This document shows positions 27,599 through 58,258 of a stretch of 64,000 nucleotides of DNA, in pieces (the stretch's first letter is position 1; every line of letters starts with the position of its first letter). Both the position numbers and the translations under genes were made by a program. This DNA comes from Deltaproteobacteria bacterium (lineage in GTDB: Bacteria; Myxococcota_A; Polyangia; Polyangiales; Ga0077539), in assembly GCA_016218725.1 (NCBI GenBank), contig JACRDB010000023.1:4479-68478 (forward strand). The letters are read 5' to 3'. The notes beneath the pieces are model-generated. The model was not told the DNA's origin. It was given only the letters and a program-made list of their open reading frames with translations, and did no database searches.

Positions 27599-27691
27599 GG
27601 CGCCCTACCGCCGCGCGACATCGGGCGCTGCGCCGGTAGACCCGAGCAGGCCGGGTGAAGGCCAGCGCCTCGTCGGCCCCGCGCGCGGCGG

Positions 27692-31511: not shown

Positions 31512-31528
31512 TTGGCCTTCCGGTGCTC

Positions 31529-31571
31529 CTCGTCCTAGACTGTCGTCCTAAGGACGACAGTCTAGGACGAG
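31529..31571. promoter_or_regulatory. Perfect 21-bp inverted repeat (1-nt spacer): candidate AbiEi operator
   Basis: ctcgtcctagactgtcgtcct-a-aggacgacagtctaggacgag, located 18 nt upstream of the abiEi start codon. Confidence 0.6.
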
Positions 31572-31586
31572 AGCCGTAATTGTCAA
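31559..31586 (-). promoter_or_regulatory. Candidate abiE promoter (TTGACA-16 nt-TAGACT)
   Basis: Minus strand: TTGACA (31586-31581), a 16-nt spacer, then TAGACT (31564-31559). The -10 lies inside one palindrome arm. Confidence 0.45.
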
Positions 31587-31735
31587 CCTCTTGCAGCAAT
31601 ATCGTCACGGCGTTCCGGCGTGATCCTCCGTTGGCATCCAACTATAGGATGGAGCACCTGAACGGGGCAAATTGTCCCGCGCCGTGGCGTCAGTCCCAGA
31701 GTTTCCTGGCATTTCGACGGACGCCGATTTTCCTA

Positions 31736-32434: not shown

Positions 32435-32476
32435 ACGGGACTCCGGGCCCCTGGCAAGGCGCCCTCGCGGGGAGGT

Positions 32477-34921: not shown

Positions 34922-34970
34922 TGCCGAGAACGTAGCACCCGCGCGGGTGTACCGTACCCCCTCGGAGGGG

Positions 34971-36275: not shown

Positions 36276-36750
36276 CATCGCGGTGGTCTACGTTTAGGCG
36301 TAAGGGATGCGCGTCCGCCTCGGGACCACGGCAGACGCGCAGCTCTCGAAGCGTGGCCTCAGTGCAGAGCCAGAATAGCTGCAACTTCACGAGGTTGCGC
36401 CCGCTGCCGTGGGCCGTCGGGCAGGGACCTGGGCCACACTTCGGGGACACCGCGGGACGCGACGAAATGCGCTTGACAGCGGCAGGACCCAGCGGGACCC
36501 TCCTGGGGGCGCAGATGGGATCGTGTGCACACACGCATCGGTCAGCGGTCGAGGGGGCTCAGCACCCTCAAGGGCCTGCGGTCGCCGGAGTGCGCTTGGG
36601 CGTTCATGGTGCGCGCGCCCTGGTGGCGGGGCTACGCGACGACCTCCTGCTGCGAGAGCGAGGCCGGAAGGTGCGCTGGGCGCCGCGCGAGTTCAAGGCC
36701 GACGAGCGCGGGGGCATCGAGGTCGAGCACAGTCGGGCGGCCGGTTCGGG

Positions 36751-36823
36751 GCGGCCTAACACGCGAATTCCGTGGTTATGCAGCCGGGGTCGGCGGCCCA
36801 ACACGCGGATTACGTGGTTATGC
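36751..36823. repeat. Two 31-bp direct repeats (3 mismatches) spaced 42 bp apart, each holding a CACG-N7-CGTG inverted repeat
   Basis: gcggcctaacacgcgaattccgtggttatgc (36751-36781) and gcggcccaacacgcggattacgtggttatgc (36793-36823), located 70-140 nt upstream of the first island gene. Confidence 0.8.
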
Positions 36824-36893
36824 GGCGGTCGAACACGATGTTAGCCCGACCGAAGGGATATACTGGAACAATGGCATCGCAAGGAGATCGCTG

Positions 36894-38096
36894 GTGAGCC
36901 TGATTGAACTCTGGAAAAAGTCGCCGGACCAGCTCACGGTCAAGCATCTTCATCAGATCATCGCCTTCGCAGGTGAAGGCAAGCTCCGGGACGGAAGTGC
37001 CACATCGTCGGAGTTTCGGTCATTTCTTCTACAGGTGCCGTCGTCGATGCTAGGGCGCTTCGTCGATGAGTGTCTGAATGCTAGTTTTCCAGATTCGGGG
37101 TTCGCGCTCCAAGATGTGATCAATGAGGTGGGGCGCCGTCTGGGATTCGTTGTGACGAATGGGCTCTACCAGGGACGCCAGGGACAGGTTGGTTCCGACG
37201 GCCTCTGGGTGCTACCAACGCAGCATGCTGTGGTGGTCGAGGCGAAAACGACCGATGCATATCGCATAGATACCGCCAGACTTGCGGGATACCGCAAGCA
37301 GTTGACGAGTGCAGGGACGATCAAGGAGGAGGCATCATCTGTACTTCTTGTTGTTGGACGTAAAGACACTGGTGATCTTGAGGCGCAGATTCGAGGCTCG
37401 CGTTACGCGTGGGAGATTCGCCTCATAAGTGCAGATGCACTTCTCCGGCTGATGAAACTCAAAGAGACCCTCGACGATCTAGCGACCATCGGCCGGATTT
37501 GCGAGATCCTGATTCCCCGCGAGTACACGCGACTGGACGACATCGTGGATCTAGTCTTCTCAACCGCCGAGGAGGTGCAGCAGGAGGACACCGAGGAGGA
37601 GGCAGAGAAGCCGGAAGACGAAGTTGGTCTAGTTGAACAGGTCCGGTCAGCCAGGCCAGCTAAGCCCATGGCGTTCCACGAGGCGTGCATCTCCCTCGTA
37701 TCTAGAGCGAAGGCCATCCCGCTCGTTCGTCAGTCTCGCTCCACATTCGCGGCTCCGGACGGCACCGTCCGGGCGGTATGCGCTGTCTCGAAGGTACATC
37801 AGTCTCAAGGACGCGAGTCCTACTGGTTTGCGTTTCATCCTCAGCAAGATGCCTATCTGGAAGGTGCAGCAAACGGTCTTCTTGTACTGGGCTGCGGAGG
37901 TCCCGAGATGGTTCTGGCGATCCCGCATCGAACAGTAAGGACGTGGCTAGGAGATCTCTGGACGACCGAACGCGACAACGGCCGGCGGTACTGGCATATT
38001 CGACTTCACGCGGCTGGCGGAAAACTGATGATGGACCGCAGCGACGGCAAATCGCGAGTGGACCTTAGCCCGTTCCTCGTCAAGCCCGCGGGCTAA
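36894..38096 (+). CDS. PD-(D/E)xK (restriction-endonuclease-like) protein with acidic linker and unassigned C-terminal domain
   Basis: GTG at 36894 with AAGGAG 7 nt upstream. Nuclease-core-like motif ...QVGSDGLWVLPTQHAVVVEAKTTDAY... (D...ExK). Acidic stretch EEVQQEDTEEEAEKPEDE. C-terminal ...GRESYWFAFHPQQ...RRYWHIRL.... Confidence 0.65.
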   Translation: MSLIELWKKSPDQLTVKHLHQIIAFAGEGKLRDGSATSSEFRSFLLQVPSSMLGRFVDECLNASFPDSGFALQDVINEVGRRLGFVVTNGLYQGRQGQVGSDGLWVLPTQHAVVVEAKTTDAYRIDTARLAGYRKQLTSAGTIKEEASSVLLVVGRKDTGDLEAQIRGSRYAWEIRLISADALLRLMKLKETLDDLATIGRICEILIPREYTRLDDIVDLVFSTAEEVQQEDTEEEAEKPEDEVGLVEQVRSARPAKPMAFHEACISLVSRAKAIPLVRQSRSTFAAPDGTVRAVCAVSKVHQSQGRESYWFAFHPQQDAYLEGAANGLLVLGCGGPEMVLAIPHRTVRTWLGDLWTTERDNGRRYWHIRLHAAGGKLMMDRSDGKSRVDLSPFLVKPAG

Positions 38097-38106
38097 CAAG
38101 CCCCTG

Positions 38107-38134
38107 CTGCCGACGCCGCTTCGCGGCGCGGCAG
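38107..38134 (+). terminator. GC-rich hairpin (12-bp stem with 1 bulge, TTC loop) after the PD-(D/E)xK gene; no T-tract
   Basis: ctgccgacgccgc-ttc-gcggcgcggcag, 11 nt after the stop codon. Confidence 0.4.
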
Positions 38135-38199
38135 AGCGGCCATCCGTTGGGCAGCCTCGAACTGCGACGATTAGGTCGTTTGGCCGAGGCCGAACAGGA

Positions 38200-39210
38200 A
38201 TGATCCAGGAAATGAGCGACTCGACTGCCAAGACTCGTGCGATCGTTACAACACGCCTCAACTCGCCTCAGCGTCAGAGGACGATCGCCGCAGTAGATGC
38301 AGACGTCCGTGTCGATCCGGGACTGATGGCTGAACTCAAGAATGAAGGGACACTCGATGACCTGATCCTTCTCGCCGAAAATGACTCCGATAACAGTGTT
38401 CGCCGCGAAGCGCTGCGCCTTCTGAGTTCCGTGGAGATCGGTGCGGACAGGTGTGATCGCCTCATCACGCTCTTGCGCCGAGAAGCGCACAATCGAGTCA
38501 GCAATGTTCTGGGCGAGGCCGTTGCAGCGGTATGGGGACAGGATCGAACTGGTGTTTTCAGGCGCCGTGATCGAAACCTCTTGCTGGGGGAGCTGCTGTC
38601 TCTCGACGTTCCCGAACATGCCCGCGTGACTGCTATTCGTGAGCTGGCGAGGTATGGCGAAATCGACGCTCTGGAACGCGTCGTGATGCTGCCAGTCAGC
38701 AGTGCGGAGGTACGTGATGCCGTGCTGGCTCTCACGACAGCGATCATCGGCCGAAAGCGCCGCGTGGATAGACTTCGTTCGTCGTCGTTCGAGCACCTCG
38801 TTCTCTACATACTCTTGAAGGAGCACCCGACGCTCTGCGGAGACGTGCGCGGACGAAGGAGGGATCGTGGAATCGACATCGTTCTCTATGAACCGCCTCA
38901 CGTTCAGTTGGGGCAATACCCTTCGCGGGGTATTCGGTTCGTGGCGCAATGCAAGAGGTGGAAGCACACGCGCGTACCTGCCTCCGAGGTATCGGAGTTC
39001 ATGGCGATCGCGAAAAGCCGCGGGGCTGGGGCGGTTTTCGTTACGACCTCCGACTTTACGGACGAGACATACGACATGGAACGTGGACGCGATTCTGAGG
39101 GCGCTCTGTTGTCACCCAGGTTGTCCGTGCCGGAACTGACGCTGATTGCTAGGAGCCGACTTCGGGACTTGCTCGACCGGCACGGGCTCGCTGAGACATA
39201 TGAACTCTAG
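38200..39210 (+). CDS. HEAT-repeat / Mrr-type restriction endonuclease fusion protein
   Basis: N-terminal HEAT-like repeats (ENDSDNSVRREALRLL; EHARVTAIRELARYGEIDAL). C-terminal Mrr_cat pattern: FEHLVLYILLKEH...RRDRGIDIVLY...IRFVAQCKRWK...GAGAVFVTTSDFT. Confidence 0.75.
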   Translation: MIQEMSDSTAKTRAIVTTRLNSPQRQRTIAAVDADVRVDPGLMAELKNEGTLDDLILLAENDSDNSVRREALRLLSSVEIGADRCDRLITLLRREAHNRVSNVLGEAVAAVWGQDRTGVFRRRDRNLLLGELLSLDVPEHARVTAIRELARYGEIDALERVVMLPVSSAEVRDAVLALTTAIIGRKRRVDRLRSSSFEHLVLYILLKEHPTLCGDVRGRRRDRGIDIVLYEPPHVQLGQYPSRGIRFVAQCKRWKHTRVPASEVSEFMAIAKSRGAGAVFVTTSDFTDETYDMERGRDSEGALLSPRLSVPELTLIARSRLRDLLDRHGLAETYEL

Positions 39211-39240
39211 GACGATGCCCGGGTTCGCGGCAGAGCTCAG

Positions 39241-39273
39241 CATGCCCAACAAGCCGATGGTGCTGACCGCTCC
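39241..39273. repeat. 33-bp direct repeat, copy 1 (upstream flank of the Rpn-family gene)
   Basis: catgcccaacaagccgatggtgctgaccgctcc versus cgtgcccgacaagccgatggtgccgaccgcccc at 40212-40244 (4 mismatches). Confidence 0.8.
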
Positions 39274-39304
39274 TGATGGTTCCCACGAGGTGTAGAAAGT
39301 TCTC

Positions 39305-40210
39305 ATGCACGCCGTTTTCGCCGACCCCAAGACCGACTTCGTGTTCAAGCGCATCTTCGGTGCCGAGACCCGCAAATCTCTCCTGATCGCGCTGCTCAAC
39401 CACCTACTGGAGTTCGAGGGCGACCAGCGGATTCTCGATGTGCAGCACCTTACGGGAGAGCAGCACGTCGATGTGGCCGAACTCAAGCTCTCGATCGTCG
39501 ATGTGAAGTGCACCGATGCGACTGGCCGCCGCTTCGTGGTCGAGATGCAGGTGCTCAAAGTCGAGGGTTTCGAGAAGCGGGTCGTCTACAACGCCAGCAA
39601 GGCGTATGTGATGCAACTCCGCAACGCCGAGGAGTACCCGACGCTGTGTGACGTGTTCGGCGTCACGATCTGCAACTTCAACCTGTGGGCGGACAAGGAC
39701 ACTCAAGGGCACTTTAGGGTGCCCATGCTGAGTCGTTGGCGCATGCAGGAACAGCACAGCGGCGCCCAGGGGCTGCCACAAGTGCAGTATGCCTTCCTCG
39801 AACTGCCCAAGTACGAAGCGGGTGATGCACCGAAAACACTCGTCGAGAAGTGGGCGTATTTCTTTCGCGAGGCCAAGAACCTGAACGTAGTCCCTTCGTC
39901 CTTGTCGGATGCGCCCTTCCGCGAGGCGCTGGAGGTCTCACGGACAGCAGGCTTCTCCGCCGACGAGTGGGAGGCATACGAACGCGCCAAGATGGCCGAG
40001 CAGGACGCACGAGGCGCGCTCGCGATCGAGCGGCAGGAGGGTAAGCTGGAAGGCAAGCGTGAAGCATTGCTGCTTCTTCTCGCGCATCGAGGCATCAATC
40101 TCATGGAGGAGGACCGCGCGAGGATCTCAGCGTGTACGGATAGTGCCATTTTTAACCGCTGGTTCCAGCGGGCACTAACGGCTACGTCGGCCGCGGAGGT
40201 GTTCGCGTGA
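39305..40210 (+). mobile_element. Rpn-family recombination-promoting nuclease / putative transposase (PD-(D/E)XK)
   Basis: MHAVFADPKTDFVFKRIFG...LSIVDVKCTDATGRRFVVEMQVLK... is the nuclease core. The C-terminal EGKLEGKREALLLLLAHRGINL tail is DUF4351-like. Confidence 0.85.
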
Positions 40211-45047: not shown

Positions 45048-45121
45048 TGGCTCTGGGCCAGGGATTCGAACCCCGATAGCGGGAACCAAAATCCCGCGTC
45101 CTGCCTTTAGACGAGCCCAGA
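45048..45121 (-). tRNA. tRNA-Gln (anticodon UUG), CCA encoded
   Basis: Hand fold of the minus strand: acceptor TCTGGGC/GCCCAGA, anticodon stem CGGGA/TCCCG with loop TTTTGGT (anticodon TTG), T-arm CGGGG-TTCGAAT-CCCTG, 3' GCCA. 74 nt. Confidence 0.85.
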
Positions 45122-46488: not shown

Positions 46489-47286
46489 CTACCTGGGCGT
46501 CCAGGTGTAGCGCGCCGAGAACCCTAGGAACACCTGGGTGTTACCCCCCGCCGCGGGCGTGTACTCCGTGGTGGTGGTGACCGTCTGGTTCACCCCGCCC
46601 ATTTGTATATGGTCGTCCAGCACCGAGGTGGTCCCGGCGCCCACCAGCGGCGTCACCAGGAGCATCACCCCGAAGGCGAGGCCCTGCGTCACCCGGTAGT
46701 CCGCGCCGAAGCCCAGCGGCACGCCCACGTAGCCCGTGGTCCAGACCGCCCGGTCCTGGGCGTCCGCTTCGTAGGTGCGCGTGCGCCGTACGCTCGTCAC
46801 GAAGTCCACCCCGAGGGACCCCCACAGCTCCACCCTCCGCAGGTCCCCCAGGCTGTTGAAGAACACCCTGGGGTTCTGGCGAGACGCCAGGAAGCTCAGC
46901 GGGTACACCCTCACGTGGGCCCCGAAGGCGTACGTACGAAACGCGTCCCGCGCGCCCATGCGCGCCTCCGAGGCGCTGAGCTGCCCGGTGGCCCCCAGCG
47001 CCTGCCAGGAGGCGTGAACCCCCGCGCTCACAAAGGGGAAGAGCCTCCAGCCCACGGCCCCCCAGGCCGCGAAGCCCGTACCGTCAAACGCCCCTAGCGC
47101 GGGGTTGCCCGCGGTGAACTGCCGGGACTCCAGGAACACCTCGTCGGTGCTGTTCCCGAAGAACCCTACCCCCGGCGAGAGCACCAGCTCCAACCCCCGC
47201 TCGCCCTCGTGGTCCGGGTGCGTCGCCCGCGCCACCGAGGGAAAGACCAGGACACCGACAAGAACCCACACCGCGCGCGACTTCAC
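46489..47286 (-). CDS. Putative outer-membrane beta-barrel protein
   Basis: Signal peptide MKSRAVWVLVGVLVFPSVARA. Alternating beta-strand-like pattern ending ...FLGFSARYTWTPR. No family recognised. Confidence 0.55.
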   Translation of the reverse strand: MKSRAVWVLVGVLVFPSVARATHPDHEGERGLELVLSPGVGFFGNSTDEVFLESRQFTAGNPALGAFDGTGFAAWGAVGWRLFPFVSAGVHASWQALGATGQLSASEARMGARDAFRTYAFGAHVRVYPLSFLASRQNPRVFFNSLGDLRRVELWGSLGVDFVTSVRRTRTYEADAQDRAVWTTGYVGVPLGFGADYRVTQGLAFGVMLLVTPLVGAGTTSVLDDHIQMGGVNQTVTTTTEYTPAAGGNTQVFLGFSARYTWTPR

Positions 47287-47308
47287 AAGGCCCGGGACTG
47301 TCGCACAC

Positions 47309-47340
47309 TCCCCCCGGGGTCGTCACCCCCGGCGAGGTCG
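47309..47340. repeat. Degraded copy of the kinase-gene 3'-end repeat (core tccccccggggtcgtcacccc)
   Basis: 47309-47329 is identical to 54995-55015. The following ~10 nt are related with indels. Confidence 0.7.
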
Positions 47341-47420
47341 GCGGGACGGATTGACACGCGGCGGTGGGGGTGGCAACATGTTGGGGGAGCCAACCAAACA
47401 AGCAGTGTTTTCCCACAGCC

Positions 47421-49016
47421 TCAGGGCCGTGAGACACGGCGCAGCGTGGTGCCCTCACCGACGAAGATCTCCGAGGGTCGGTCGCCGTCCAGTACGAGCA
47501 CCTCCTGGGCGGTCCTCGCCACCACCCAGGCGCCGAGCTGACAGCCCGTCAGGGTGACGGGCGGCGCTCCCTCCGGCGATGGGGCCGTCGCAGAAAAGAC
47601 CGAATACCTCGGCGGAGGCGAAGTCACCGAGGGCCGAGGCTCGGCGCTCGAGATCGCTCCGCTGCGCGGCTGGTGCTCGACCTGGAGAAGCGTCAACCCG
47701 GGCGCCGCGGGGGGAAGAGCACCCCGCCCCACGACGCCCGTCGTTGCGTCCAGGATGCATACAAGTCGCTCGCTTGTGGAGCGGCAGTGATTGATCGTCG
47801 CGGCCGTCGCCGCGCCGGATCCCGGCCCCGGCGACGCCAGGACCACGTCAGCCCCCTCCTCCGGGAGGCGGCCGTCTCCGATGTAGGTGTTGTCGAAGCT
47901 GCACCCTTGCACCAACATGCTCCCGGCCTCGGCCCGCAGCATCCAGCGCGCGGAGCCCTCGAAGACACACGACGCGACGCGCACCCCCAGGGACCTGCTC
48001 CCCCTCACTTCCACGCCGTTTGCGGCGATGTTCTGGACGCCCCAGACCACAACCCGGCAGCCATCAAGGGTGAGCCCCGGGACAGCGGTCGAGGCCGCGA
48101 AGGACTCCGGAAAGCTACCTTCCAACGCCTGGGAGTGGTGGCTGTCGCCGTCCGCCCAGAGCACCCTGGCGCCGAGCTGGCGCTCCGTTGCGCCCTCGAA
48201 CAGACACCCGCGGAAGAGCATGTCACGCAGCGGCGCGAAGCGTATACCCTGGCTGTTGACCACAAACGGGAGGTTCAGCACGGCTACGCAGGTCGGCGCC
48301 CGCCGCTCCGCCGAGAAGGACACGCCCTCGACGGTGGCGCCGGAGACGCCCCCAAGCCACAAGAGCGCCGGACCCGTGAAGCCAGGGGCCGCCAGGAGGT
48401 TGGGTCCTCGGCCGTCGGGGAGGCCGCCGCCGTAGGTCCCTCGGAGCAGGAGGCCCTCGGTGGCGGGCCTGCCGTCTCCGGTGTCCCCCTGCACCACGAC
48501 GGCCTCGGTCAGGGCGTAGGACCCGGTCAGGACCACCGGCAGCGGGGGGATGCCCTCAAGGACGCGGCGCCTCCACGCCGTCTCGATTGCGTCGGAGATC
48601 GCCCGAGCCACATTGATGGGCCTCCTCGGGACTCCGCGGGTCGTCGGCTGAACGGCCCCAAACCACTCAGGATATACCTCCCTCGGACCCAGCGATGGGA
48701 ACTCCCTGGAGCCCAGTTGCAGCACGCCAGGGAGCACCTCGTGGTGGAGCTCGAAGAGCTGGTGAAGCCCTGCCTGGAGCGGCCCCTGGATCACCAGACG
48801 CGAGGCGGCGCCGAGCACCACCACGGCCCCAGGCGCGAAGACCAGCTCCAGCCAGGGAGGGAGCACCATCTCTCCAAAGAAGACGTAGGTCCCCGGCTGG
48901 AAGTAGACCAGCAGGGCGCTCGTGGGAGGCGCGCTCGCCGCGAGGGTGAGGAGCCCCGCCCAGTGCGCGTCCGGCGAGAGTAGGAGCGTAGGAGGATCCG
49001 AGACCTGCGCCTCCAT
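47421..49016 (-). CDS. Beta-helix paralogue A (pectate-lyase-superfamily-like), no signal peptide
   Basis: 531 aa. ...ALLVYFQPGTYVF...LVFAPGAVVVLG...GPLQAGLHQLF...REVYPEWFGA..., then a Gly/Val-rich repeat region. ATGA overlap with the upstream gene. Confidence 0.7.
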   Translation of the reverse strand: MEAQVSDPPTLLLSPDAHWAGLLTLAASAPPTSALLVYFQPGTYVFFGEMVLPPWLELVFAPGAVVVLGAASRLVIQGPLQAGLHQLFELHHEVLPGVLQLGSREFPSLGPREVYPEWFGAVQPTTRGVPRRPINVARAISDAIETAWRRRVLEGIPPLPVVLTGSYALTEAVVVQGDTGDGRPATEGLLLRGTYGGGLPDGRGPNLLAAPGFTGPALLWLGGVSGATVEGVSFSAERRAPTCVAVLNLPFVVNSQGIRFAPLRDMLFRGCLFEGATERQLGARVLWADGDSHHSQALEGSFPESFAASTAVPGLTLDGCRVVVWGVQNIAANGVEVRGSRSLGVRVASCVFEGSARWMLRAEAGSMLVQGCSFDNTYIGDGRLPEEGADVVLASPGPGSGAATAATINHCRSTSERLVCILDATTGVVGRGALPPAAPGLTLLQVEHQPRSGAISSAEPRPSVTSPPPRYSVFSATAPSPEGAPPVTLTGCQLGAWVVARTAQEVLVLDGDRPSEIFVGEGTTLRRVSRP

Positions 49017-50863
49017 CAGCGAGGCCTTCGGAGGAGGGGGAGGGCCGGGATCTCCGCGTCCACGCCGACGCCACCCAGACGAAAGAAGGGCGGCGCGAGG
49101 GTGAGCGCGGATCCCAGGGCGCTGGCCCTGCGCAGGACGTGGCCCTCGCGGAAGGACGAGCCGATGTCGGCCACACAGCGCGCGGAGGCGCTGGGGGAGA
49201 GCTGCACCCAGGAGGAGAAGCGACAGCCTACCAGTACCAGGTTCCCGTCCACCGGCGCCAGGCCGCCCCAGCGCACCGAGGGCCCCGCCTCCGTGCCCAC
49301 GGGGGAGTCCCCGAGGTTCACGTCCGAGTGCCTTGTGCCCACCAGCACGGCGTTACGCTGCAGCCGACGCAGGTGCCGCGTCCCCTCCGTCGGCACCGCC
49401 GCCCGAAGCAGCAGGGCCGCGCTCTGGGACTCGCAGCCCAGCATCGTGAGCGCCGCGGGCTCGGGGCTGCGGCGCTCGCTCCAGGCCGTGGTGCCGAAGG
49501 CCTCCAGGAGCGCGTGGTCCTCCGCGGTCGCGCCTCCGTTGGCGCCGAGCACCACGTCCTCGCCGCCGCTCTCGCGGTCCGCGCGAGGTCGGTACGCCAC
49601 GGGCGACGCGGCGTGCAAGTCACACCCGTTGAGCAGCACCGCGCCACCCTCCGCGTGCACGAACGAGCGGAAGTCCCCCGCGGGGTCCGTCGCCGCGAAG
49701 ATGGAAGAGCCCACGTCCACGAAGAGCGACGAGGGGCCCCGCACGTAGAGCCCACGCGGCGTCAGCACCCGGCCCTCCCCGACCGCGTTGAGGCCCCCAA
49801 GGATGAACGCACAGTGGTCAAAGATGTAGCGTGAGGCAGGCTGCGGAGGCGGCTGATCCGGGTCCGAGGGCTCCCCCAGGATGGCCACCGTGGCCACCCG
49901 GCCCCCGTTGAAGGTGCAGTGCGTGAAGCGCCCCGTGACGCTCCGGCCTGGCCCTCCGGCGGTCTGTGCGGGCGGCTCGATCGCCACCGCGGCGGCGAAC
50001 ACCTCCCGCGCGGGCCCCCCCCGTGGGGCGTCCACCAGGAGGGCGATGTGCTGCACGTCAAAGCCACGGCCCGTCAGGATGTTGAGCGCAGGGGGGAGCG
50101 GCTGTGAGGTGGGAGGAGCGCCCGCGCGGGTGAAGAAGAGCCTGCCGTGGGCCTCCCCGGAGGAGCCGATGCCATGGGCGCCGCGCAGCAGGAGCGGGTT
50201 GCCCGGGCTCAGATGCTCTCGCTCCAGCTCAGGGGATAGGGCAGGGCCCTGCCGAGGGACCTTGTCTACGTAGAGGGCTCCTGCCAGCTTGTACTCCCCG
50301 GTCACCATGATCGGGAGGGGAGGGAGCGCGCCACGCAGCACCACCGCGGCGTCAATGGCGGCCTGGAAGCCCTCCTCGGCGTCGAAGCGGCGGGTGGCCC
50401 CGCTGGCCTGCGAGGACGTCGCACCGAACCACTCAGGGTACACCACTGGGATCCGGCGCGACGCGAGGATCACACGCCCATCCTTGGGCGGCCGGTTCGG
50501 CAGCGGGTCCCGCACCTCGCGGCCCTCCTGGGACCCGAAGAGTTGGAAGGGTCCCGCGTCCAGGGACCCCCGGAGCACCAGCGTCACGCCGCCGTAAAGC
50601 TCGATCCGGGCGCCTGGCGCGAACTTCAGCGTGATGTGGTCGGGGATCTCCACGACCGGACCAGCGCTGGCGTCCAAGCGATATGACACGCCATCGCCCA
50701 GGGTCGGGAGGTAGATGATCCCACCGTGAGACAGATCTCGTCCAGGCGTGGGCGGGCCAAGAGCATCTCGGAGGGTTGGAGCCAGATCCTCGAAGGCCTC
50801 CTCCCTGAAGCGGCCACCATCACCATCTGGAAAGAGGACATTTACAAAGGACTTGCCGAACAC
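49016..50863 (-). CDS. Beta-helix paralogue B, no signal peptide
   Basis: 615 aa. ...GGIIYLPTLGDGVSY...LKFAPGARIELYG...GSLDAGPFQLF...PVVYPEWFGATS...FQAAIDAA.... GTG start with GGAGG 6 nt upstream. Confidence 0.7.
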   Translation of the reverse strand: MFGKSFVNVLFPDGDGGRFREEAFEDLAPTLRDALGPPTPGRDLSHGGIIYLPTLGDGVSYRLDASAGPVVEIPDHITLKFAPGARIELYGGVTLVLRGSLDAGPFQLFGSQEGREVRDPLPNRPPKDGRVILASRRIPVVYPEWFGATSSQASGATRRFDAEEGFQAAIDAAVVLRGALPPLPIMVTGEYKLAGALYVDKVPRQGPALSPELEREHLSPGNPLLLRGAHGIGSSGEAHGRLFFTRAGAPPTSQPLPPALNILTGRGFDVQHIALLVDAPRGGPAREVFAAAVAIEPPAQTAGGPGRSVTGRFTHCTFNGGRVATVAILGEPSDPDQPPPQPASRYIFDHCAFILGGLNAVGEGRVLTPRGLYVRGPSSLFVDVGSSIFAATDPAGDFRSFVHAEGGAVLLNGCDLHAASPVAYRPRADRESGGEDVVLGANGGATAEDHALLEAFGTTAWSERRSPEPAALTMLGCESQSAALLLRAAVPTEGTRHLRRLQRNAVLVGTRHSDVNLGDSPVGTEAGPSVRWGGLAPVDGNLVLVGCRFSSWVQLSPSASARCVADIGSSFREGHVLRRASALGSALTLAPPFFRLGGVGVDAEIPALPLLRRPR

Positions 50864-50886
50864 ACTTCACCTCCGATCTCGCCCTT

Positions 50887-52740
50887 TTAGAGCAGACGAG
50901 TCGCTGGCCTCGAAAAAGTACTGACCCTGCGCGCAGTTGCGCCCCCTACACTCTCTGATCCCTCGACGAAGTAGAGGGTGTGAGTTGTGCGGTCCATCAC
51001 AAATACATCGTCTCTCCCGTCCCCATTCATGTCGCCCACGCATGCGAGCTTCCATCCGAACCCCATTTCCCGCTCCAACAGCAGCGCAGGCGTTCGATCT
51101 ACCCCTTCTTCGGTCCCGAGGAAGATCAGGAGCGCCCCGCCACCGAAGTAGTACTGATCCTCAGAAGTTACGCCTCCGTCCGCCCAGCGATCTCGTATCG
51201 GCCAGGCTCCATTGGCCATGGCGAGGTCAAGTCTGCCATCTCCATTGAAGTCCAGACCGCAGCAGTTGTCGCCAAAGTCGAGGCCGAGTTCCCCCGGCGG
51301 TGGAACGAGGGTCGTCCGCGTCGGCAACGGAGGATCCCCAGGACCGCCTCGATACAGATCGATGACGGACTCACCTCCTACGCCAAAATCCGAGTATCCA
51401 TCGGCGTTCCAGTCAACCTGACCAAAGATGGCCATCCCATAGGTCTCGCCTCGGCGCGGGGAGTACAGCATGCTGGGTTGTGCACCCAAGGCGAAAGGAC
51501 CGCCATAGAACACCTTTGCGAACGAGCGCCCATCCCCTCGCCACATGCTCCCAAGGAGGTCCCCATAGCCATCTCTGTTGGTGTCGCCAACCCCCACCAG
51601 TTCATAGCCTACTCGATCGTCATGGTTTCCGCTGAAGACCACCGCGCGGCTCCACGTTAGCCCTCCGGGGCCGCCAAGATAGACTGAAATTTCGGGATTG
51701 GGAGGGTAGTCACTACGAGCGAGATCTGAGAAACCGTCGCCGTTCAAGTCCGACGCAATTGTTCCAGGATAGCCGTAGAAGGACTGCTCTGTTCCATGCT
51801 GAGGAATGATGTTGGTCGGGTCAGGAGAGAGCCCCATTGTCAATCCATGGTAGATAAGCGATGTCTGGTGCCACGGTCCGTCCGGCCGATTCTCCGCAGC
51901 CGCTCCCGTCATTGCGACATCGGCGATCCCGTCACGATTGACATCACCGAACGACAACGAGTCGGCCCTGTATCGCAGCGTGTCCTGCGTGCGCAAGGTG
52001 ATCTGCGGCTCGCCACTCGGGCCACCTGGACCTCCTGTGAAGACAAGGATTTCTGGTGGATTGATGATCCCCACCAGCGCGTCGTCGTAGCCGTCGCCGT
52101 TGAAGTCGCGGAGCCCGCCGTAGGCGAAATCCGTGGGCCTGTCATGGCGGCCCACGACGAACTCCCAGGTTGGCGAGAGGCGCTCTCCGACCTCGCGCTC
52201 GGTGATCCCGCGCAGGCGCCAGAACACCACCCCGGGCGGCAGCCTGGCCGCGGGCCGGAAGGACTCGCCCTCGACGTCCTGGCGCAGGAGCACCCGCTCG
52301 CAGGCACAGTCCAGGCACAGCTCCACCCGCGCTCCGCGCACCCCCGGCGGCAAGGACCACCGCACCGTCGGCCGCTGCGACATCACCTTCATCACCGATG
52401 GTGGGTACAGCGGCCTTGGCGCCGCCAGCGTGGCCCGGACGGCGCGGGGGCGGGTCTCGTCCCGCGTCTCGACCGCCGTCTCACGGTGGCAGTCCGCGGG
52501 CGGCCGCCACACGTCCTCGGCGTCCCGCCACGCGGTCGCGTCCTCTACCCCGCCGCCGAGGTCCTCGGGCGGCGCCTCCTCCGTGACCGCGTCGCGCGCC
52601 GCGGCACGCGGTGGGGTCTCACAGCCCGCGAGCAACGCCATCAACGAGAGCGCGCCTGCCAGGGCGCCGCCACAGGTCGCGGCGCTAGCGTGCACTTCTG
52701 AGCTCTGGGAAGCCATAGACATGGACGGTCCCTGGACCAC
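50887..52740 (-). CDS. Seven-repeat FG-GAP (integrin-alpha-like propeller) lipoprotein with N-terminal Ig-like module
   Basis: Lipobox ...ALSLMALLAGC (start at Met1, Met7 or Met9 is uncertain). Repeats LRDFNGDGYDDALV, FGDVNRDGIADVAM, ASDLNGDGFSDLAR, VGDTNRDGYGDLLG, QVDWNADGYSDFGV, GLDFNGDGRLDLAM and VGDMNGDGRDDVFV. Confidence 0.78.
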   Translation of the reverse strand: MVQGPSMSMASQSSEVHASAATCGGALAGALSLMALLAGCETPPRAAARDAVTEEAPPEDLGGGVEDATAWRDAEDVWRPPADCHRETAVETRDETRPRAVRATLAAPRPLYPPSVMKVMSQRPTVRWSLPPGVRGARVELCLDCACERVLLRQDVEGESFRPAARLPPGVVFWRLRGITEREVGERLSPTWEFVVGRHDRPTDFAYGGLRDFNGDGYDDALVGIINPPEILVFTGGPGGPSGEPQITLRTQDTLRYRADSLSFGDVNRDGIADVAMTGAAAENRPDGPWHQTSLIYHGLTMGLSPDPTNIIPQHGTEQSFYGYPGTIASDLNGDGFSDLARSDYPPNPEISVYLGGPGGLTWSRAVVFSGNHDDRVGYELVGVGDTNRDGYGDLLGSMWRGDGRSFAKVFYGGPFALGAQPSMLYSPRRGETYGMAIFGQVDWNADGYSDFGVGGESVIDLYRGGPGDPPLPTRTTLVPPPGELGLDFGDNCCGLDFNGDGRLDLAMANGAWPIRDRWADGGVTSEDQYYFGGGALLIFLGTEEGVDRTPALLLEREMGFGWKLACVGDMNGDGRDDVFVMDRTTHTLYFVEGSESVGGATARRVSTFSRPATRLL

Positions 52741-54338
52741 CGATGGACTCCATCAAGGTCCGAACACCCGCGAAGGACGGGCCCGCAGCCACGATCGGAC
52801 TACCCCCGGTCACCATGGTCATGAACACTCCTCCGTAGCGCCCTCCAACGACCGTCAACGACGGCTTCCCTCTGTCACTCCGCGCTGCCAGCACGAAGTA
52901 CCCCCACACGATCGATGCCTCCGTGGGGCGCATCTCCGTGCGCTGCCACACATCGATGAGGGTCACCGGGAGGTCCGTACCAACCCTGGCGCGCGGCTCG
53001 AAGTCTCGGTAATAGGTCTCCAGGAAGCGCTTGCTGTGGGTCACGCACTGCATCGCCAGCAGCCCTTGGGGGCGGTGAAGTGGTCGTGGCTCCGCCCTCG
53101 AAGGTCTCGTGGCCCAGGTAGATGTCCGACCCATCCGGCGTCCCGGGGCCCTCGAGCTTCGGCGGGTTCCGAGGCTCCCGGTCATTCCTGAAGCGGCACC
53201 CCTCCACGGTGAAGCTCCCCGCGAGCGCATAGATCATGGCCGCGGCCGTCCCCTCGAAGACACAGCCGGTCACCACCATCGGGAGCGTGTTTCCTGCGCG
53301 AAGCTGAAGGCCGATCCCCTGGTCTTGCACCGGGAAGAACCCACAGCCCTCGAAGCGCAGGCAGAGCAGGTCACCCCCGGAAGGCTCCTTCGCGGGCGGC
53401 GCGCCCTTGGGTCCCCGCGGCTGTCCGACAGCGCCGGCGTTGACCAGCGTGTCCGTCGCGCCCCGGAAGGTGCACCGCCGCAAGGAGCCCGCCTGATCCT
53501 GCCGGGTGGTGCCTGGGCGCGGCGGCGAGATGTCCACCACCACGCAACGCGCGGCGCGGTTCACGGCGTCGAAGACCACGTTCTCAACGGACCAGCCGAA
53601 GACGTCCCGGAGCCGCACAAGCGCCCCGTGGTGCTGCGCCGGGGCTCGGTCCACGAAGCCCGCGCCCGCCACGATGGTACCGACCTCACCGTCCGCGCCC
53701 CGCGTCCCGACGATCTTTGCGCTCGCATTGACCACCTCCGGGAGCTCCGTCGGCTGCGGCAGCGCGTCTCGATAGCCCACCTCGATCGGCGCGCGCACCA
53801 CGTAGCGCCCCGCCAGGGACAGCTCGACGGGCGGGAGCTGGGTCCCGACGCGCGGCCCGAGGCGGCGCAGGTTGCACGCGGCGTCCACGGCGGCCTGGAG
53901 GGCGACGGTGTCGTCTCTGCCAGCACCTGCGCCCCACCACTCCGGGTAGACCCGCGGGAGCTGGTATCCGGTCATGACGACATGGACGCCGTCTGCGTCA
54001 GGAACCCGGAAGAGCTGCCTGGCCCCGTGGGCGATCCCACCTTCGATCTCCAGGATCACCCCTGCGCGAAGGTCCAGGAGCGCCCCGGACTTGAACAACA
54101 TCGTGACGTTGGCGGGCACGTAGACCGTAGGGCGCCAGGCCCGCCCGGCCACGGTCCCCTCCGGCTCCAGGACCAGCGTCTCGGGCACGTAGAGGAAGCC
54201 CCCACCCCGGAAGGTCAGCGCCGCCGCGGCCTTGTTGAGCCGCACCACCGGGGAGTCACCGGGCCGGGGCACCACCGCGGCCGGGCCCTTCCATTCCCCC
54301 AGCACATCAATGAACTCGCGTCGGCTGAAGCCTCCCAC
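52685..54338 (-). pseudogene. Beta-helix paralogue C, split by a frameshift in a C5/G5 run (53068-53072)
   Basis: ORF 52875..54338 carries ...GGFLYVPE...MLFKSGALLDL...GGIAHGARQLF...RVYPEWWGAGAGRDDTVALQAAVDAA.... The C-terminal module conserved in A and B continues in ORF 52685..53230 (LLAMQCVTHSKRFLETYY...). Removing one C from tcaccgcccccaaggg joins them. Confidence 0.6.
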
Positions 54339-54356
54339 CCGCTGCCTCCCGTGTAG

Positions 54357-54755
54357 TTAGAACGACGTGCGGCGCGCGAGCCCCTCGGCGCTGAAGGTGA
54401 GCGTCTCGCCGGTGTTGGCGAAGGTGATCACCCACCGAAGGTACTTCAGGAGCTTTCCGGTGAGGCTCGGCACCGACACCGGATAGAAGCCTGAGACGGT
54501 GATCGTGACCGGGTCCGACGCGGGAATCCAGCTCGACTTGGTCGCCCCCAGGTCGTCGAAGTCCACCTGCATGGAGGTCATGAGCTGGAACGTCGCGTTG
54601 CTCGCGGGCGCCTTCTGGATGAACACCTCGAACTCCATGATCTCGAAGCCGTCCACTCGGGGAGCGCGCGTGATCGACATCGCCCGCACCAGCTCCGGGG
54701 CCGTGGCTCCCGCCGTCACGACCGTCGTCTTCTCCAACAAGAACTCCGTAGCCAT
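54357..54755 (-). CDS. 132-aa orphan protein (all-beta-looking), first gene of the operon
   Basis: ATG at 54755 with AGGAG 9 nt upstream. The ORF-track start at 54815 lies inside the -10 hexamer. MATEFLLEKTTVVTAGATAPELVRAMSITRAPRVDGFEIMEFEVFIQ.... The TAA stop is followed by GGGAGG-6 nt-GTG of the next gene. Confidence 0.6.
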   Translation of the reverse strand: MATEFLLEKTTVVTAGATAPELVRAMSITRAPRVDGFEIMEFEVFIQKAPASNATFQLMTSMQVDFDDLGATKSSWIPASDPVTITVSGFYPVSVPSLTGKLLKYLRWVITFANTGETLTFSAEGLARRTSF

Positions 54756-54810
54756 GATCCCACACTCCTGTGTCCCTGGGAATGGACCGAAGTCCGGGAC
54801 ACCAGAAGCC

Positions 54811-54843
54811 ATCATACCCCCCCCCCCATTGAAATTTTGTCAA
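54811..54843 (-). promoter_or_regulatory. Sigma70-like promoter TTGACA-21 nt-TATGAT whose spacer contains a G11 homopolymer (54817-54827)
   Basis: Minus strand reads ttgaca aaatttcaat ggggggggggg tatgat, within the only AT-rich stretch of the region, ~55 nt upstream of the orf132 ATG. Confidence 0.5.
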
Positions 54844-54902
54844 TACACGCCAAAAAATCTTGCAATTCCGATGTGTTACGCGCATCAATCAGGATATTTT
54901 CA

Positions 54903-54992
54903 CGAGACCTGCGTCTCCACCAGCGAGGCCTCTGGAGGAGGGTGCCGGGACCTCCGCGTCCACGCCGACGTCGCCCAGGCGAAAGAAGGGCT
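54903..54992 (-). pseudogene. ~90-bp ghost copy of the junction between beta-helix paralogues B and A
   Basis: Aligns by eye with 48999-49091 (about 85% identity, one 3-nt indel). It reads ...PFFRLGDVGVDAEVPAP... versus PPFFRLGGVGVDAEIPALP...*MEAQVS in the intact genes. Confidence 0.7.
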
Positions 54993-54994
54993 CC

Positions 54995-55038
54995 TCCCCC
55001 CGGGGTCGTCACCCCTGCCGTCGAGGCTCCACCGGCAC
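54995..55038. repeat. Copy of the 3' end (last 9 codons + stop) of the histidine-kinase gene
   Basis: 55002-55038 versus 56662-56698: 37 nt with 2 mismatches. It would read VPVEPRRQG* on the minus strand. Confidence 0.8.
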
Positions 55039-55096
55039 GCTGTTTGCTTGTGATCCCCGGTTGCCTGCGAAGCTCGTCCGGTCCTGGTCGGTCAAT

Positions 55097-55114
55097 GACT
55101 ATGGCGCCATAGTC
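55097..55114. promoter_or_regulatory. 18-bp perfect palindrome GACTATGGCGCCATAGTC
   Basis: Direct reading; located ~190 nt upstream of ORF 55303. Confidence 0.35.
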
Positions 55115-55302
55115 TTCGGGGCACCGCAGGAGTAGACCCCGCTGGGCGCCAACTGGGGAAGCGTCGGGGCGTTGGACTACGAAGGCAGGCCACCGACATA
55201 AGGCCGCGCAGTAGGGGCAGTGTTGCGCAGGGCGGCAGCGCCTCTGTGGCGGTGCGGCCCGGCGTTGCGAGGGGTCATCGCGAGGGATAGGCTACCGAGG
55301 TC

Positions 55303-56271
55303 ATGCCGTCGGCCCAAAGTGCAGCGCCGCGCCCTGTGTACCCGCGCGCGCCGGAGAGGCCGCGGCTCGCACCCGACGTCGCGCTGACGCGGCAGACGGT
55401 GCGCCGGGTAGCGCTCCTGTTCCCTCCCGCTCGGCGGGCGGCGCTGCGAGCTGCCTTCCGGCAGCTCCGCGACGAGGTCGCGGCGAGGCTGGTGAAGGCA
55501 CGCGACGCTGGCGAGGTGTTCGCGTTGCTCGCGGAGCTGGAGCCAACGTCCTCCGCGCTGTGCTCGTTCATCGGGAGCCTGTTCCAGGACTTCGATCCCG
55601 GCGCCGTCGCCCAGACGACCGACCAGGGCGTCGAGGAGATCCGCGCACTGAGGCGCAGCTCACACCGTCGCATGAAGCCCGCTACCGCCGCCGAGCTCGA
55701 CGACGCCCTGGCGCTCTACGAGGCGTCGGTGCGGGTGCTGGGCACTGTTGACCTCGGGCGCGCGGTGCTCCAGACCGACACGGCGCGGACCTTCACGCAG
55801 GCCGCGGCCGACTCTGACGCCCTACTGGTCACGGTGGCGATGGTGCTCGACGGCGAGCTCAAGACCCGGTCGGCGCGCGGCTTCGCGGCGCTGGTCGGGG
55901 CCCTCCGCGACGTGTGCCTGGCGCGCTACTCGCTCGCGCGAGAGCTCGCCTCAATGGCCTCCCTCGACCCCGGAGCATGCGTCGAGGAGCGGGTCGAGAG
56001 GCTCCACGGCGGGCGTCGCACCTTCGCGCTGCGCGACGTGATGCACGTTGCGTTCGTCGAGGGCGACGGAGGTGTCACTGCGATCCTGCACGCGCTCGAC
56101 CTCAGCGCCGCGGCCCCGACCCGGGCGGAGGCACTGGTGGAGCTCGGCGAGCGCTTCGCCGCGCTGTGGGACGCGGTCGCCGAGGACCACGCGGCGCCCG
56201 TGACGCTCGACGCCGAGGCGCTGCGCTGGCGCCTGCGACGGGTCATCGGCGACGTCGAGGCCAGCGTGTGA
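55303..56271 (+). CDS. Hypothetical protein, helical N-terminal ~230 aa plus a C-terminal HicB-like module (tentative)
   Basis: The C-terminus ...FALRDVMHVAFVEGDGGVTAILHALDLSAAAPTRAEALVELGERFAALWD... resembles the HicB antitoxin N-domain pattern (memory only). Its stop overlaps the next gene's start. Confidence 0.5.
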   Translation: MPSAQSAAPRPVYPRAPERPRLAPDVALTRQTVRRVALLFPPARRAALRAAFRQLRDEVAARLVKARDAGEVFALLAELEPTSSALCSFIGSLFQDFDPGAVAQTTDQGVEEIRALRRSSHRRMKPATAAELDDALALYEASVRVLGTVDLGRAVLQTDTARTFTQAAADSDALLVTVAMVLDGELKTRSARGFAALVGALRDVCLARYSLARELASMASLDPGACVEERVERLHGGRRTFALRDVMHVAFVEGDGGVTAILHALDLSAAAPTRAEALVELGERFAALWDAVAEDHAAPVTLDAEALRWRLRRVIGDVEASV

Positions 56272-56606
56272 CGGCCCTGAAGGCGAAGGACGTCGAGGAC
56301 GCACTAGCAATCAAGGGCTTCGAGGTCGTGCAGGGCAAGCACCGCGAGTTCCGACTGATGGTCGAGGGGCAGCGGACGAGCGTGGCGACCCACACGTCTC
56401 ACAACTCGCAGGAGATCGACGATTTCCTCGCCAGCATGATGGCTCGGCAGCTCCACCTCCCCAAGGCCGATTTCCACCGGCTGGTAGGGTGCTCGCTCTC
56501 CGGCGAGGAGTACCTCAAGCGGATGGTCGCCGAAGGGTGGGTGGTGCTGGCCAGCGCACCGCCGGCGCCGTCGAAGGCGACGAAACCCCGGCGGAAGGGT
56601 CGTTGA
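56268..56606 (+). CDS. HicA-like small protein (tentative) with basic C-terminal tail
   Basis: GTG at 56268 (GTGTGA overlap). LKAKDVEDALAIKGFEVVQGKHREFRLMVEGQRTSVATHTSHNSQEIDDFLASMMARQLHL resembles the HicA pattern (K..l..L...Gf.....G.H..f......v..H....i....l..i.kql.l). Confidence 0.45.
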   Translation: MTALKAKDVEDALAIKGFEVVQGKHREFRLMVEGQRTSVATHTSHNSQEIDDFLASMMARQLHLPKADFHRLVGCSLSGEEYLKRMVAEGWVVLASAPPAPSKATKPRRKGR

Positions 56607-56661
56607 CCGGGGGGCGCCGACGACGGACGGAGCCGTAGCGGGCCGCACCTGCTTCGCCCCG

Positions 56662-56698
56662 GTGGTCGTCACCCCTCCCGTCGAGGCTCCACCGGCAC
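56662..56698. repeat. Master copy of the repeat: the authentic 3' end of the histidine-kinase gene
   Basis: See 54995..55038. Confidence 0.8.
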
Positions 56699-58258
56699 CG
56701 GCTGCCCCGTGGACGGCGACCGCTCGGAGAAGGTCACGAAGCTCAACCGAGGGGTGCGGGCTGGATCCCGCAGGGGGAGCGTGAGCACGAAGCGCGCGCC
56801 GCCTCCCGAGCGCGCCTCCAGGCCCACGTCCCCGTCGTGGTCCAGGGCGATCTTGCGCACGATGGCCAGGCCGAGCCCGGTGCCCTCCGCCCTGGTGGTG
56901 AAATACGGGTCCCACACCTTCCCTCGCTGCTCCGGCGGGATGCCTGGGCCGTCGTCTTCGACCACCAGCCACGCCTGGGCCTCGCCCTCGCGGGTGGTGT
57001 GCAGCCTCGCCCGCACCCACACGGTGCCGCCGGGGCCTCCCTTCTGGGCCCGGGCCTCCAGGGCCTGCACGGCGTTCCTCACCAGGTTCTCAAAGGCCCT
57101 CCGGAGCATCATGCGGTCGATGCGCACGGGGATCGGCTCCGTCGGCGCGTCAAAGACCACCGCCACGTCGTCCCGGCGGGACGCTCCCGCGGCCTCGTCC
57201 AGGAACGCACGGCTCCCGGCCGCGTCCCGCAGGAACTCCGAGAGGTCCCCGGGCGAGGGCTTCACCTCCGGGAGCTTGGCGAAATCCGAGAAGGCCGTCA
57301 CCAGCCTCCGGAGCGTGCCCACCTCCTCCTCGACCACCTCCCGGGCCGTGTCCAGCGTGCGGCGGTAGCGCGCGTCGTCGCCCTGGTACTTCCTCGCGGC
57401 CTCCTGCACCGCGAGCTGGATGGGCGTCAAGGGGTTCTTGATCTCGTGGGCCAGGCGCCGGGCGAACTCCTGCCAGCCCGCCAGGCGCTGGAGGTAGTCA
57501 ATCCGCTCCCGCGAGAGCGCCAGCTCCTCCACCATGAGGTTGAAGGCCCGGATCAGCGCGTCCACCTCGGTGTCCCCGTGGGGCCTCACCCGCACCGAGA
57601 GGTCCCCGGCCCCGACCCTGCCCGCGGCCCTGGCCACCAGCGAGAGCCTCCGGGTGAAGGCCCTCGCCAGGAGCGCCCCCACCAGCCCCGCCCCGAGGGC
57701 CGCCGCGAGGGCCGTGAGCACCACCCCCGGAAGACCCCCAGCGCGCGCCTGGAGCGGCGTTTGCGGCGCCTCGCAGCGCGGCTGGAACTGCACCGCCACG
57801 GTGAGCCCCGAGGACCCGAGCGGCGCCGCGCGGTGCACCCTCGGGCACGCCAGCGAGCGCCCCTCCCGCGGCGCCGTGGTGGCCGTGGCCAGGGCCGCGC
57901 CCTCGGGGGTCACCACCTGCGCGCCGGTCGCGTCCACCGCGGGCCCCAGGGCCGTCACGCTCCGGAAGAGGGCCTCGGTGCACCTCCTCCGCGCGGGGGT
58001 GTCCACCCTGGGGTCCGCGCCGCCCAGGGCCAGGAGGAGCGCGCCCCGGACGCCCTCCAGGGCCTCCCGGTGGAGCGCGCCCAGGGCCTCGTCCCGCGCC
58101 CCCTCGGCGCGGGCGACGCGCGCCCGGGCCTCGCGCTCCAGGCGCTCGCCCGCCGCGCGCTCACGGCGCGCAAGGCCCCCCGCCAGGAGCCCCGCGGGCG
58201 CCGCCGCGGCGAGGCCCACCAGCAACCCCAGCCGGAGCTCAAAGGACGCGCCAGCCAT
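56669..58258 (-). CDS. Sensor histidine kinase (periplasmic/TM region + HAMP + HisKA + HATPase; NtrY-like)
   Basis: HAMP LSLVARAAGRVGAGDLSVRV...IRAFNLMVEEL; H-box FARRLAHEIKNPLTPIQL; N/G boxes LVRNAVQA, VEDDGPGIP and GTGLGLAIV. Confidence 0.88.
   Translation of the reverse strand: MAGASFELRLGLLVGLAAAAPAGLLAGGLARRERAAGERLEREARARVARAEGARDEALGALHREALEGVRGALLLALGGADPRVDTPARRRCTEALFRSVTALGPAVDATGAQVVTPEGAALATATTAPREGRSLACPRVHRAAPLGSSGLTVAVQFQPRCEAPQTPLQARAGGLPGVVLTALAAALGAGLVGALLARAFTRRLSLVARAAGRVGAGDLSVRVRPHGDTEVDALIRAFNLMVEELALSRERIDYLQRLAGWQEFARRLAHEIKNPLTPIQLAVQEAARKYQGDDARYRRTLDTAREVVEEEVGTLRRLVTAFSDFAKLPEVKPSPGDLSEFLRDAAGSRAFLDEAAGASRRDDVAVVFDAPTEPIPVRIDRMMLRRAFENLVRNAVQALEARAQKGGPGGTVWVRARLHTTREGEAQAWLVVEDDGPGIPPEQRGKVWDPYFTTRAEGTGLGLAIVRKIALDHDGDVGLEARSGGGARFVLTLPLRDPARTPRLSFVTFSERSPSTGQPVPVEPRREG

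Follow-up and report, generated by a model that had tools for sequence, protein, structure and literature searches.

In a 64-kb window (the whole stretch of DNA that was analyzed, ~72% GC) from the metagenome-assembled genome (MAG) of a Myxococcota-type bacterium, the gene for a sensor histidine kinase is followed by two blocks of atypical DNA, and at the borders of these blocks lie three copies, all in the same orientation, of the sequence that surrounds the kinase stop. We favor, with moderate confidence, the interpretation that the blocks accreted in tandem by site-specific integration at the end of the kinase gene and have since decayed to a state resembling that of cis-mobilizable elements (CIMEs). 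The kinase (529 aa; 56669..58258, minus strand) has the domain order HAMP-HisKA-HATPase_c by Pfam. It is 100% identical to the NCBI protein of this MAG, and all other homologs found by database search are at most 75% identical; its relatives are labelled Polyangiales, Sandaracinus, or Myxococcales. Its open reading frame (ORF) is intact, and since an ortholog (P0020) has a similar ending (SEPVRREG), the tail of the protein is native.

The copy at the kinase gene itself (copy A, attL-like) spans 56652..56704, with an ungapped conservative extent of 56657-56698, and runs from the kinase tail through the TGA stop codon (56669-56671) into ACCGGGGCGAAG; the last 9 codons of the gene together with the stop form its left part. 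Copy B, the hybrid site between the blocks, spans 54993..55042 (ungapped match, 54997-55038) and carries the kinase tail as in A on its left and CCGGGGGGAG, as in C, on its right. Copy C, the attR-like site (47308..47334), reads GGGG-TGA-CGACCCCGGGGGGAG on the kinase strand and lies 22 nt upstream of the start of a 265-aa gene. A and B match at 39 of 42 positions (56657-56698 vs. 54997-55038), and when two short indels are allowed, their similarity grows to ~50 nt (56652-56704 vs. 54993-55042). Kinase coding sequence accounts for 30 nt of this repeat, and copy B keeps the stop codon, translating as VPVEPRRQG-stop where the kinase itself ends in VPVEPRREG-stop. B and C are 93% identical over 27 nt (54994-55020 vs. 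47308-47334) and have an exact 22-mer in common (54994-55015 and 47308-47329). A first-pass annotation of this DNA had reported that the kinase end recurs at 55002-55038 with two mismatches and that the middle and distal copies share an identical 21-nt core; read from the sequences, the former has exactly two mismatches, and the latter is correct, with an exact match that reaches 22 nt.

Chance levels for these repeats were taken as the expectation in shuffled sequences. When at most three mismatches were allowed, 0.05 occurrences of the core were expected and two were seen in the window, while the 34-nt kinase tail was expected 0.00 times and likewise seen twice. Among all exact repeats of at least 16 nt in the window, the 22-mer of B and C and a 21-mer of A and B are the longest dispersed direct repeats, local tandem and coding-internal repeats excepted. 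No fourth copy was found by blastn-short in the 64 kb, the next best match being 12 nt long.

The middle copy had been proposed to be a hybrid site, and a three-way alignment bears this out. On the kinase strand, A reads ...GTGCCGGTGGAGCCTCGACGGGAGGGGTGACGACCACCGGGGCGAAG..., B reads ...GTGCCGGTGGAGCCTCGACGGCAGGGGTGACGACC-CCGGGGGGAGGAGCC..., and C, after unrelated sequence, reads CCGGGGGTGACGACC-CCGGGGGGAGTGTGCG.... Copy B is a genuine hybrid: it joins the left half of A to the right half of C, with clean boundaries. To the left of AGGGGTGACGACC, A has a G and B has a C; to the right, B and C agree, and A has one extra A, followed by C for G and A for G. Since the copies differ on either side of AGGGGTGACGACC in this manner, the polymorphisms fit a fixed crossover of block 1 inside it; on this reading, the G/C difference would set the chromosomal copy A apart from the incoming copy B, and the differences on the right would set the incoming copy A apart from the chromosomal copies B and C. 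Copy C, for its part, consists only of the stop-codon core and native downstream bases, the sequence expected after the kinase stop. The degraded likeness to the kinase tail previously noted there (47330-47340) is at chance level, since local alignment against shuffles gave p = 0.42-0.58.

The copies were also said to delimit two blocks, and their positions do coincide exactly with the borders of two blocks of atypical composition, block 1 (~1.6 kb, 55039..56656) between A and B, and block 2 (~7.7 kb, 47335-54993) between B and C. At third codon positions, the GC content (GC3) of the flanks is 0.944±0.017 (27 genes). Of the seven block genes, six, at 0.73, 0.82, 0.85, 0.86, 0.87, and 0.90, fall 3-13 standard deviations below these flanks; the remaining one, the 132-aa gene of block 2, is at 0.93 and is the only one whose GC3 is typical. 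The other four genes of block 2 lie at 0.73-0.86, and the two ORFs of block 1 at 0.90 and 0.87.

If the blocks were inserted, an empty site should join the kinase 3' end directly to the sequence beyond copy C, as the first-pass annotation had pointed out. Such an arrangement was found in five independent lineages (L002, L203/L204, L206-L208, L211, and L212), where the kinase is followed after 111, 28, 55, 22, and 63 nt by a homolog (253-272 aa) of the 265-aa gene, with no block genes in between. These relatives are distant, their kinases being ~64-75% identical in amino-acid sequence over the C-terminal part. The 265-aa gene (omp265; 46489..47286, minus strand) encodes a secreted, outer-membrane beta-barrel-like protein and is the conserved, immediate downstream neighbor of the kinase in relatives. 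Its homology is documented by BLASTP (4e-36) and by tblastn in the five lineages (8e-68 to 7e-24), and the L211 homolog has a weak match to OMP_b-brl. Upstream, too, relatives keep the gene order, in which glutamate dehydrogenase and then a DUF4388/PatA_N-like protein precede the kinase, and tblastn with the seven block proteins gave no match in the kinase loci of the five lineages. When the left part of A was joined to the right part of C, the rebuilt junction (TGACGACCCCGGGGGGAGTGTGCGACAGTCC) could be aligned to the L212 spacer (TGACGACGCCTGGGCGTGCGAGAGTCC), which has no insert, with 22/27 identities and a single 4-nt gap (shuffle p = 0.009). Since five distant relatives have the kinase directly before an omp265 homolog and the rebuilt junction aligns with the L212 spacer, the comparison strongly supports reading the DNA between the kinase stop and 47308 as a lineage-specific insertion relative to lineages that retain omp265.

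Other relatives of the kinase carry other downstream genes. In L001/L003 (11535-11810), an antisense ORF of 84-86 aa overlaps the kinase end and is followed by an ATP-binding cassette (ABC) transporter, and in L205 (11654-15293), small ORFs follow the kinase, then a BrxC/BrxD-like ATPase. Judging from these gene orders, the 3' flank appears to be a recurrent variable spot in the kinase family. A metagenome scan with the kinase alignment patterns LAHEIKNP and GTGLGLAIV, which are generic to histidine kinases, gave a best match of 50% identity.

Tandem accretion is the most probable origin of the arrangement. In the ancestor, the kinase gene would have been followed by ~40 nt and then by the 265-aa outer-membrane-like gene. 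A circular element with a five-gene operon, now block 2, would have integrated first, at a core overlapping the kinase stop codon (GGGGTGACGACCCCGGGGGGAG). A second, small element (block 1, with a HicA-like pair) carrying a ~50-nt mimic of the kinase 3' end would later have entered the kinase-proximal att site, so that ~9.35 kb of acquired DNA, in two blocks bounded by copies of the kinase stop, would now part the kinase from omp265. Each integration would regenerate the last codons and the stop of the kinase, which would account both for the intact gene and for the hybrid nature of copy B. The layout of attL-like A, block 1, hybrid B, block 2, and attR-like C would then be the product of successive Campbell-type integrations at one site. 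Since neither block encodes a recombinase, we read the elements as decayed and CIME-like; they would be fixed, or else depend for any movement on an integrase from another locus. We infer site-specific recombination, two separate events and their order, and a former integrase.

This scenario has close parallels. CIMEs have been defined, and their accretion has been described in three steps: integration of an element, its decay, and, at the att site containing the gene end, integration of another element (PMC5704250). We call the blocks CIME-like because they agree with this published definition and accretion scenario. Indeed, of the features by which CIMEs are recognized, the sequence of the locus has direct repeats with an intact target gene, an unoccupied site in distant relatives, and no integrase among the block ORFs. 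As far as the account given in PMC5704250 extends, the CIMEs at fda in Streptococcus thermophilus, related to the integrative and conjugative elements (ICEs) ICESt1/ICESt3 (Pavlovic et al., 2004), likewise have direct copies of the 3' end of the target gene, a regenerated gene end, and hybrid internal att sites between tandem elements, and their decayed members keep attL and attR without integrase or transfer genes. They differ from the present case in that no related autonomous ICE, integrative and mobilizable element (IME), or integrase is known for the kinase site. Compared with what is described there for fda, the target here is a sensor histidine-kinase gene in a Myxococcota-type MAG, and the blocks are very small (1.6 and 7.7 kb).

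A second parallel is offered by the ssrA islands of Dehalococcoides, which form tandem arrays with 20-bp repeats, some without integration modules (PMC3146451). As at the kinase, the islands there lie in tandem downstream of one gene, each bounded by a ~20-bp repeat of the gene 3' end, and the copy within the gene differs from those in the repeats by a fixed polymorphism that shows where the crossover lies; some islands have no integration module (PMC3146451). However, the target in Dehalococcoides is a transfer-messenger RNA (tmRNA) gene, a serine recombinase (DsiB) is encoded beside attL in most islands, and dozens of examples are known across strains. The kinase site, in contrast, is a single instance, and no recombinase was found with it.

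Small modules may also be moved without any recombinase of their own. In the Xer-dependent IMEX elements and the pdif modules of Acinetobacter plasmids, integrase-less cassettes are moved by host recombinases, and pdif modules often carry toxin-antitoxin genes. The kinase locus resembles these systems in its small modules, which include a toxin-like pair as theirs include toxin-antitoxin pairs, in the short putative recombination sites that bound them in an array, and in the lack of a recombinase in cis. However, its core has no 11-6-11 dif-like dyad and no AT-rich center, its direct repeats include coding sequence, and nothing marks the site as dif; a dif/Xer site was rejected by inspection on the same two grounds, the missing dyad and the missing AT-rich center. 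Integron gene cassettes were also considered and set aside, since no IntI or other tyrosine recombinase was found in the scanned ORFs and the copies are direct repeats without attC-like structure. We consider it very improbable, though conceivable, that the kinase stop is still active in recruitment, with small integrase-less cassettes (here a 1.6-kb toxin-like module and a 7.7-kb surface or beta-helix operon) being stacked there by the host or by a recombinase whose gene lies elsewhere. Such a site would be a cassette-accretion platform at the 3' end of a protein gene in Myxococcota, functionally like pdif/IMEX arrays though with an unrelated site; a bolder form of this idea would have the 322-aa ORFan from block 1 supply a new recombination function.

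Several observations weigh against tandem accretion by site-specific integration. Neither the seven block ORFs, searched against Pfam, PHROGs, and NCBIfam, nor any other scanned ORF of the 64-kb window, of which a few stretches lay outside the scan, contains an integrase or recombinase, in agreement with the first-pass annotation, which had seen none. Since the NCBI locus tags are consecutive in steps of five (HY909_03435 and HY909_03455), there is no room for a missed gene across the region. The only transposase-like gene in the scanned ORFs belongs to a PD-(D/E)XK 'transposase' family (PDDEXK_2) and lies at 39305-40210. No autonomous element with the same att was found, there being no exact match to the att or the core in viral contigs. 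Dyad symmetry such as recombinase core sites have is not convincingly present in the core, which is also not unusually structured when folded (z-scores of -0.15 to +0.96 vs. shuffles). The end of block 2 beside copy B is a truncated gene fragment and not a recognizable attP arm. Since the relatives with an empty site are distant, they do not fix the timing or the number of the insertion events. Finally, the source of the sequence is a 74-kb contig of a MAG, labelled 'Deltaproteobacteria bacterium' at NCBI.

The last point bears on whether the locus is an artefact of metagenome assembly, in which strain haplotypes downstream of the kinase were concatenated through a short repeat. Some assemblers use a smallest k-mer of 21-22 nt, which equals the length of the exact repeats observed here. 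However, the repeats are imperfect and far shorter than final assembly k-mers, locus tags HY909_03435 and HY909_03455 run consecutively across the region, and everything from the kinase through both blocks to omp265 is intact and sensibly ordered, which makes an artefact very improbable. We regard it as just as improbable that the core is a dispersed repeat, akin to repetitive extragenic palindromic (REP) elements or to terminators, with the blocks being ordinary variable DNA. An 18-mer, GGGGTGACGACC(N)CCGGGG, does form part of terminator-like hairpins in Streptomyces, and a scan of genome contigs gave at least 119 single matches to it in unrelated high-GC genomes, which for so short a pattern are chance matches. 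Yet dozens of intergenic regions in the 64 kb yielded no further copies, the A/B repeat extends over 30 nt of coding sequence, the copies fold no more stably than shuffles and none was flagged by a terminator scan, and they are located exactly at the three borders of the inserted DNA. Transposition with duplication of the target site would account for direct repeats flanking each block. The target-site duplications of transposons are about 2-15 bp long, and the 22-50-nt repeats observed here far exceed them; moreover, the ends of block 1 have no significant terminal inverted repeats and neither block contains a transposase, so that we consider transposition highly improbable.

Two further explanations invoke recombination of another kind. 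A circle carrying a copy of the kinase end of 25-60 nt, e.g., from a related donor genome, could have entered by a RecA-dependent, Campbell-type single crossover that duplicated the shared segment without any integrase. Such an event would account equally well for the direct repeats, for a gene end that is regenerated, and for the lack of an integrase, and considering that the minimal homology for RecA-dependent exchange is near ~50 nt, the A/B homology of ~50 nt would be close to sufficient. The B/C homology of 22-27 nt, however, is very short for RecA, the source of circles bearing a kinase tail is left unexplained, and the use of the same short core at both events suits a fixed site better; we therefore hold this route to be unlikely. 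Also rather unlikely in our judgment is a single composite insertion, of both blocks together or of block 2 alone, with copy B and a gene fragment abutting it (the ghost junction described below) resulting from later local rearrangement by duplication, gene conversion, or templated break repair. The ghost junction does show that this spot was rearranged, and composites of CIME and ICE are known to move as one unit (PMC5704250). Nevertheless, copy B consists precisely of the left of A and the right of C, which random rearrangement is not expected to yield, and block 1 is unlike block 2 in its GC3 and its genes.

Block 2 (minus strand) comprises an AT-rich leader, a five-gene operon, and the ghost junction at its B end. 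The operon encodes a 132-aa jelly-roll protein (54357-54755, with the start at 54755 placed by homology), a 487-aa beta-helix-like protein with a YPEWWGA motif (52875-54338), a 617-aa FG-GAP lipoprotein (50887-52740), and two paralogs of the 487-aa protein, of 615 aa (49016-50863) and 531 aa (47421-49016). Apart from FG-GAP, the operon proteins have no match in Pfam, PHROG, or NCBIfam. All five genes occur in the same order, at 34-42% identity, in Logan contig L209 (1989-9616), where the flanking genes (a YchJ-like gene and a radical SAM gene) are unrelated to those of the window. In addition, a 1.8-kb Joint Genome Institute (JGI) contig (L210; Ga0494960_00313822) is 86.5% identical in DNA to the region of the 615/531 junction; in contrast, no homolog of the kinase exceeds 75%. 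That the operon is collinear in L209 in an unrelated context and has an 86.5% DNA copy in L210 shows it to be portable as a unit. The only direct repeats flanking the L209 operon are a 34-nt pair at 74% identity, which is probably due to chance.

The ghost junction (54903..54991, minus strand) is 89 nt long and repeats, at 87-90% identity, the sequence in which the 615-aa gene stops and the 531-aa gene starts (48999-49091). Truncated at either end, it abuts copy B and adjoins the AT-rich leader, and it is only 73% identical to L210. Its presence shows that block 2 was rearranged at the end near copy B. We infer that it could be a scar of deletion or rearrangement at a place typical of integration modules, which would not explain it fully; it may have originated by deletion of a second operon copy or by templated repair. 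The leader next to it (54816-54902) is 43% GC in a 72% GC genome and holds a TTGACA; it also contains, on the minus strand, a run of 11 G residues (54817-54827), located ~60 nt upstream of the point where homology places the start of the 132-aa gene. The leader with its G tract is a possible promoter or slippage-prone tract.

The family of the 132-aa protein is rare, with 13 representatives among 1.8 billion. Its predicted structure (predicted local distance difference test, pLDDT, of 92) is a generic jelly-roll beta-sandwich. A functional assignment by fold was attempted and abandoned, since carbohydrate-binding modules (CBMs), viral coat proteins, Ena pilins, and PirA all matched at a TM-score of only 0.4-0.66. 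A phage origin of block 2 was likewise rejected, as there was no PHROG match, no relative in IMG/VR, and no att sequence in viral contigs.

Block 1 consists of 264 nt of non-coding DNA, a 322-aa ORFan (55303-56271, plus strand), and a 111-aa HicA-like ORF (56271-56606, plus strand) that overlaps it. The first-pass annotation had called this a hicBA-like pair. The basis for that description is weak: the 111-aa ORF scored 23.2 bits against HicA_toxin (E = 7.5e-5), which is below the Pfam cut-off of 27, and it also matched a PHROG 'toxin' family (E = 0.003), while the partner is an ORFan without a family match. The only database match of the 322-aa protein is itself; no homologs, no family match, and no sequence match in the PDB were found, and its single-sequence AlphaFold model, with a pLDDT of 40, is unusable. 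An ORFan with a HicA-like partner is typical accessory cargo. A perfect 18-nt palindrome (GACTATGGCGCCATAGTC), which could be an operator for the toxin-like pair, lies at 55097-55114 (~190 nt upstream of the 322-aa ORF); its stability as RNA is unremarkable (z = -0.76). A search for terminal inverted repeats at the ends of block 1 gave only chance-level pairs (18-20 nt at 75-78% complementarity).

Elsewhere in the window, a tRNA-Gln(TTG) gene (45048-45121, minus strand) is found 2.2 kb past copy C, flanked by a 476-aa ORF without a family match and a thymidine phosphorylase gene. While tRNA genes are classic integration targets, no repeat of its 3' end was noticed. A second accessory-looking stretch (27083-40210), in which several ORFs have a lower GC3 (0.78-0.82), holds an AbiEii/AbiEi toxin-antitoxin pair (29752-31511), a protein with an Mrr_cat restriction-endonuclease domain (38200-39210), and the PDDEXK_2 gene mentioned above (39305-40210). 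Short-period tandem or near-tandem exact repeats of up to 54 nt occur at 9006-9101, 21071-21165, and 27257-27301; the first two lie inside ORFs (7988-9259 and 19546-21975, respectively), and such repeats are probably repetitive peptide motifs.

Tandem accretion and CIMEs are already well described, and the locus opens no new question in that regard; the target itself, however, is unreported. The three copies provide exact primers and junction sequences for spotting excision or empty sites in the source metagenome, and the five-gene operon, with its jelly-roll, beta-helix-like, and FG-GAP proteins, is marked as a portable unit. If tandem accretion is the correct explanation, the protein-coding targets of integration would come to include a sensor histidine-kinase gene, at its 3' end, from an uncultured Myxococcota-type bacterium, and the locus would illustrate cleanly and on a small scale how accessory operons and toxin-like modules come to be stacked at one site and then stranded as integrase-less remnants.

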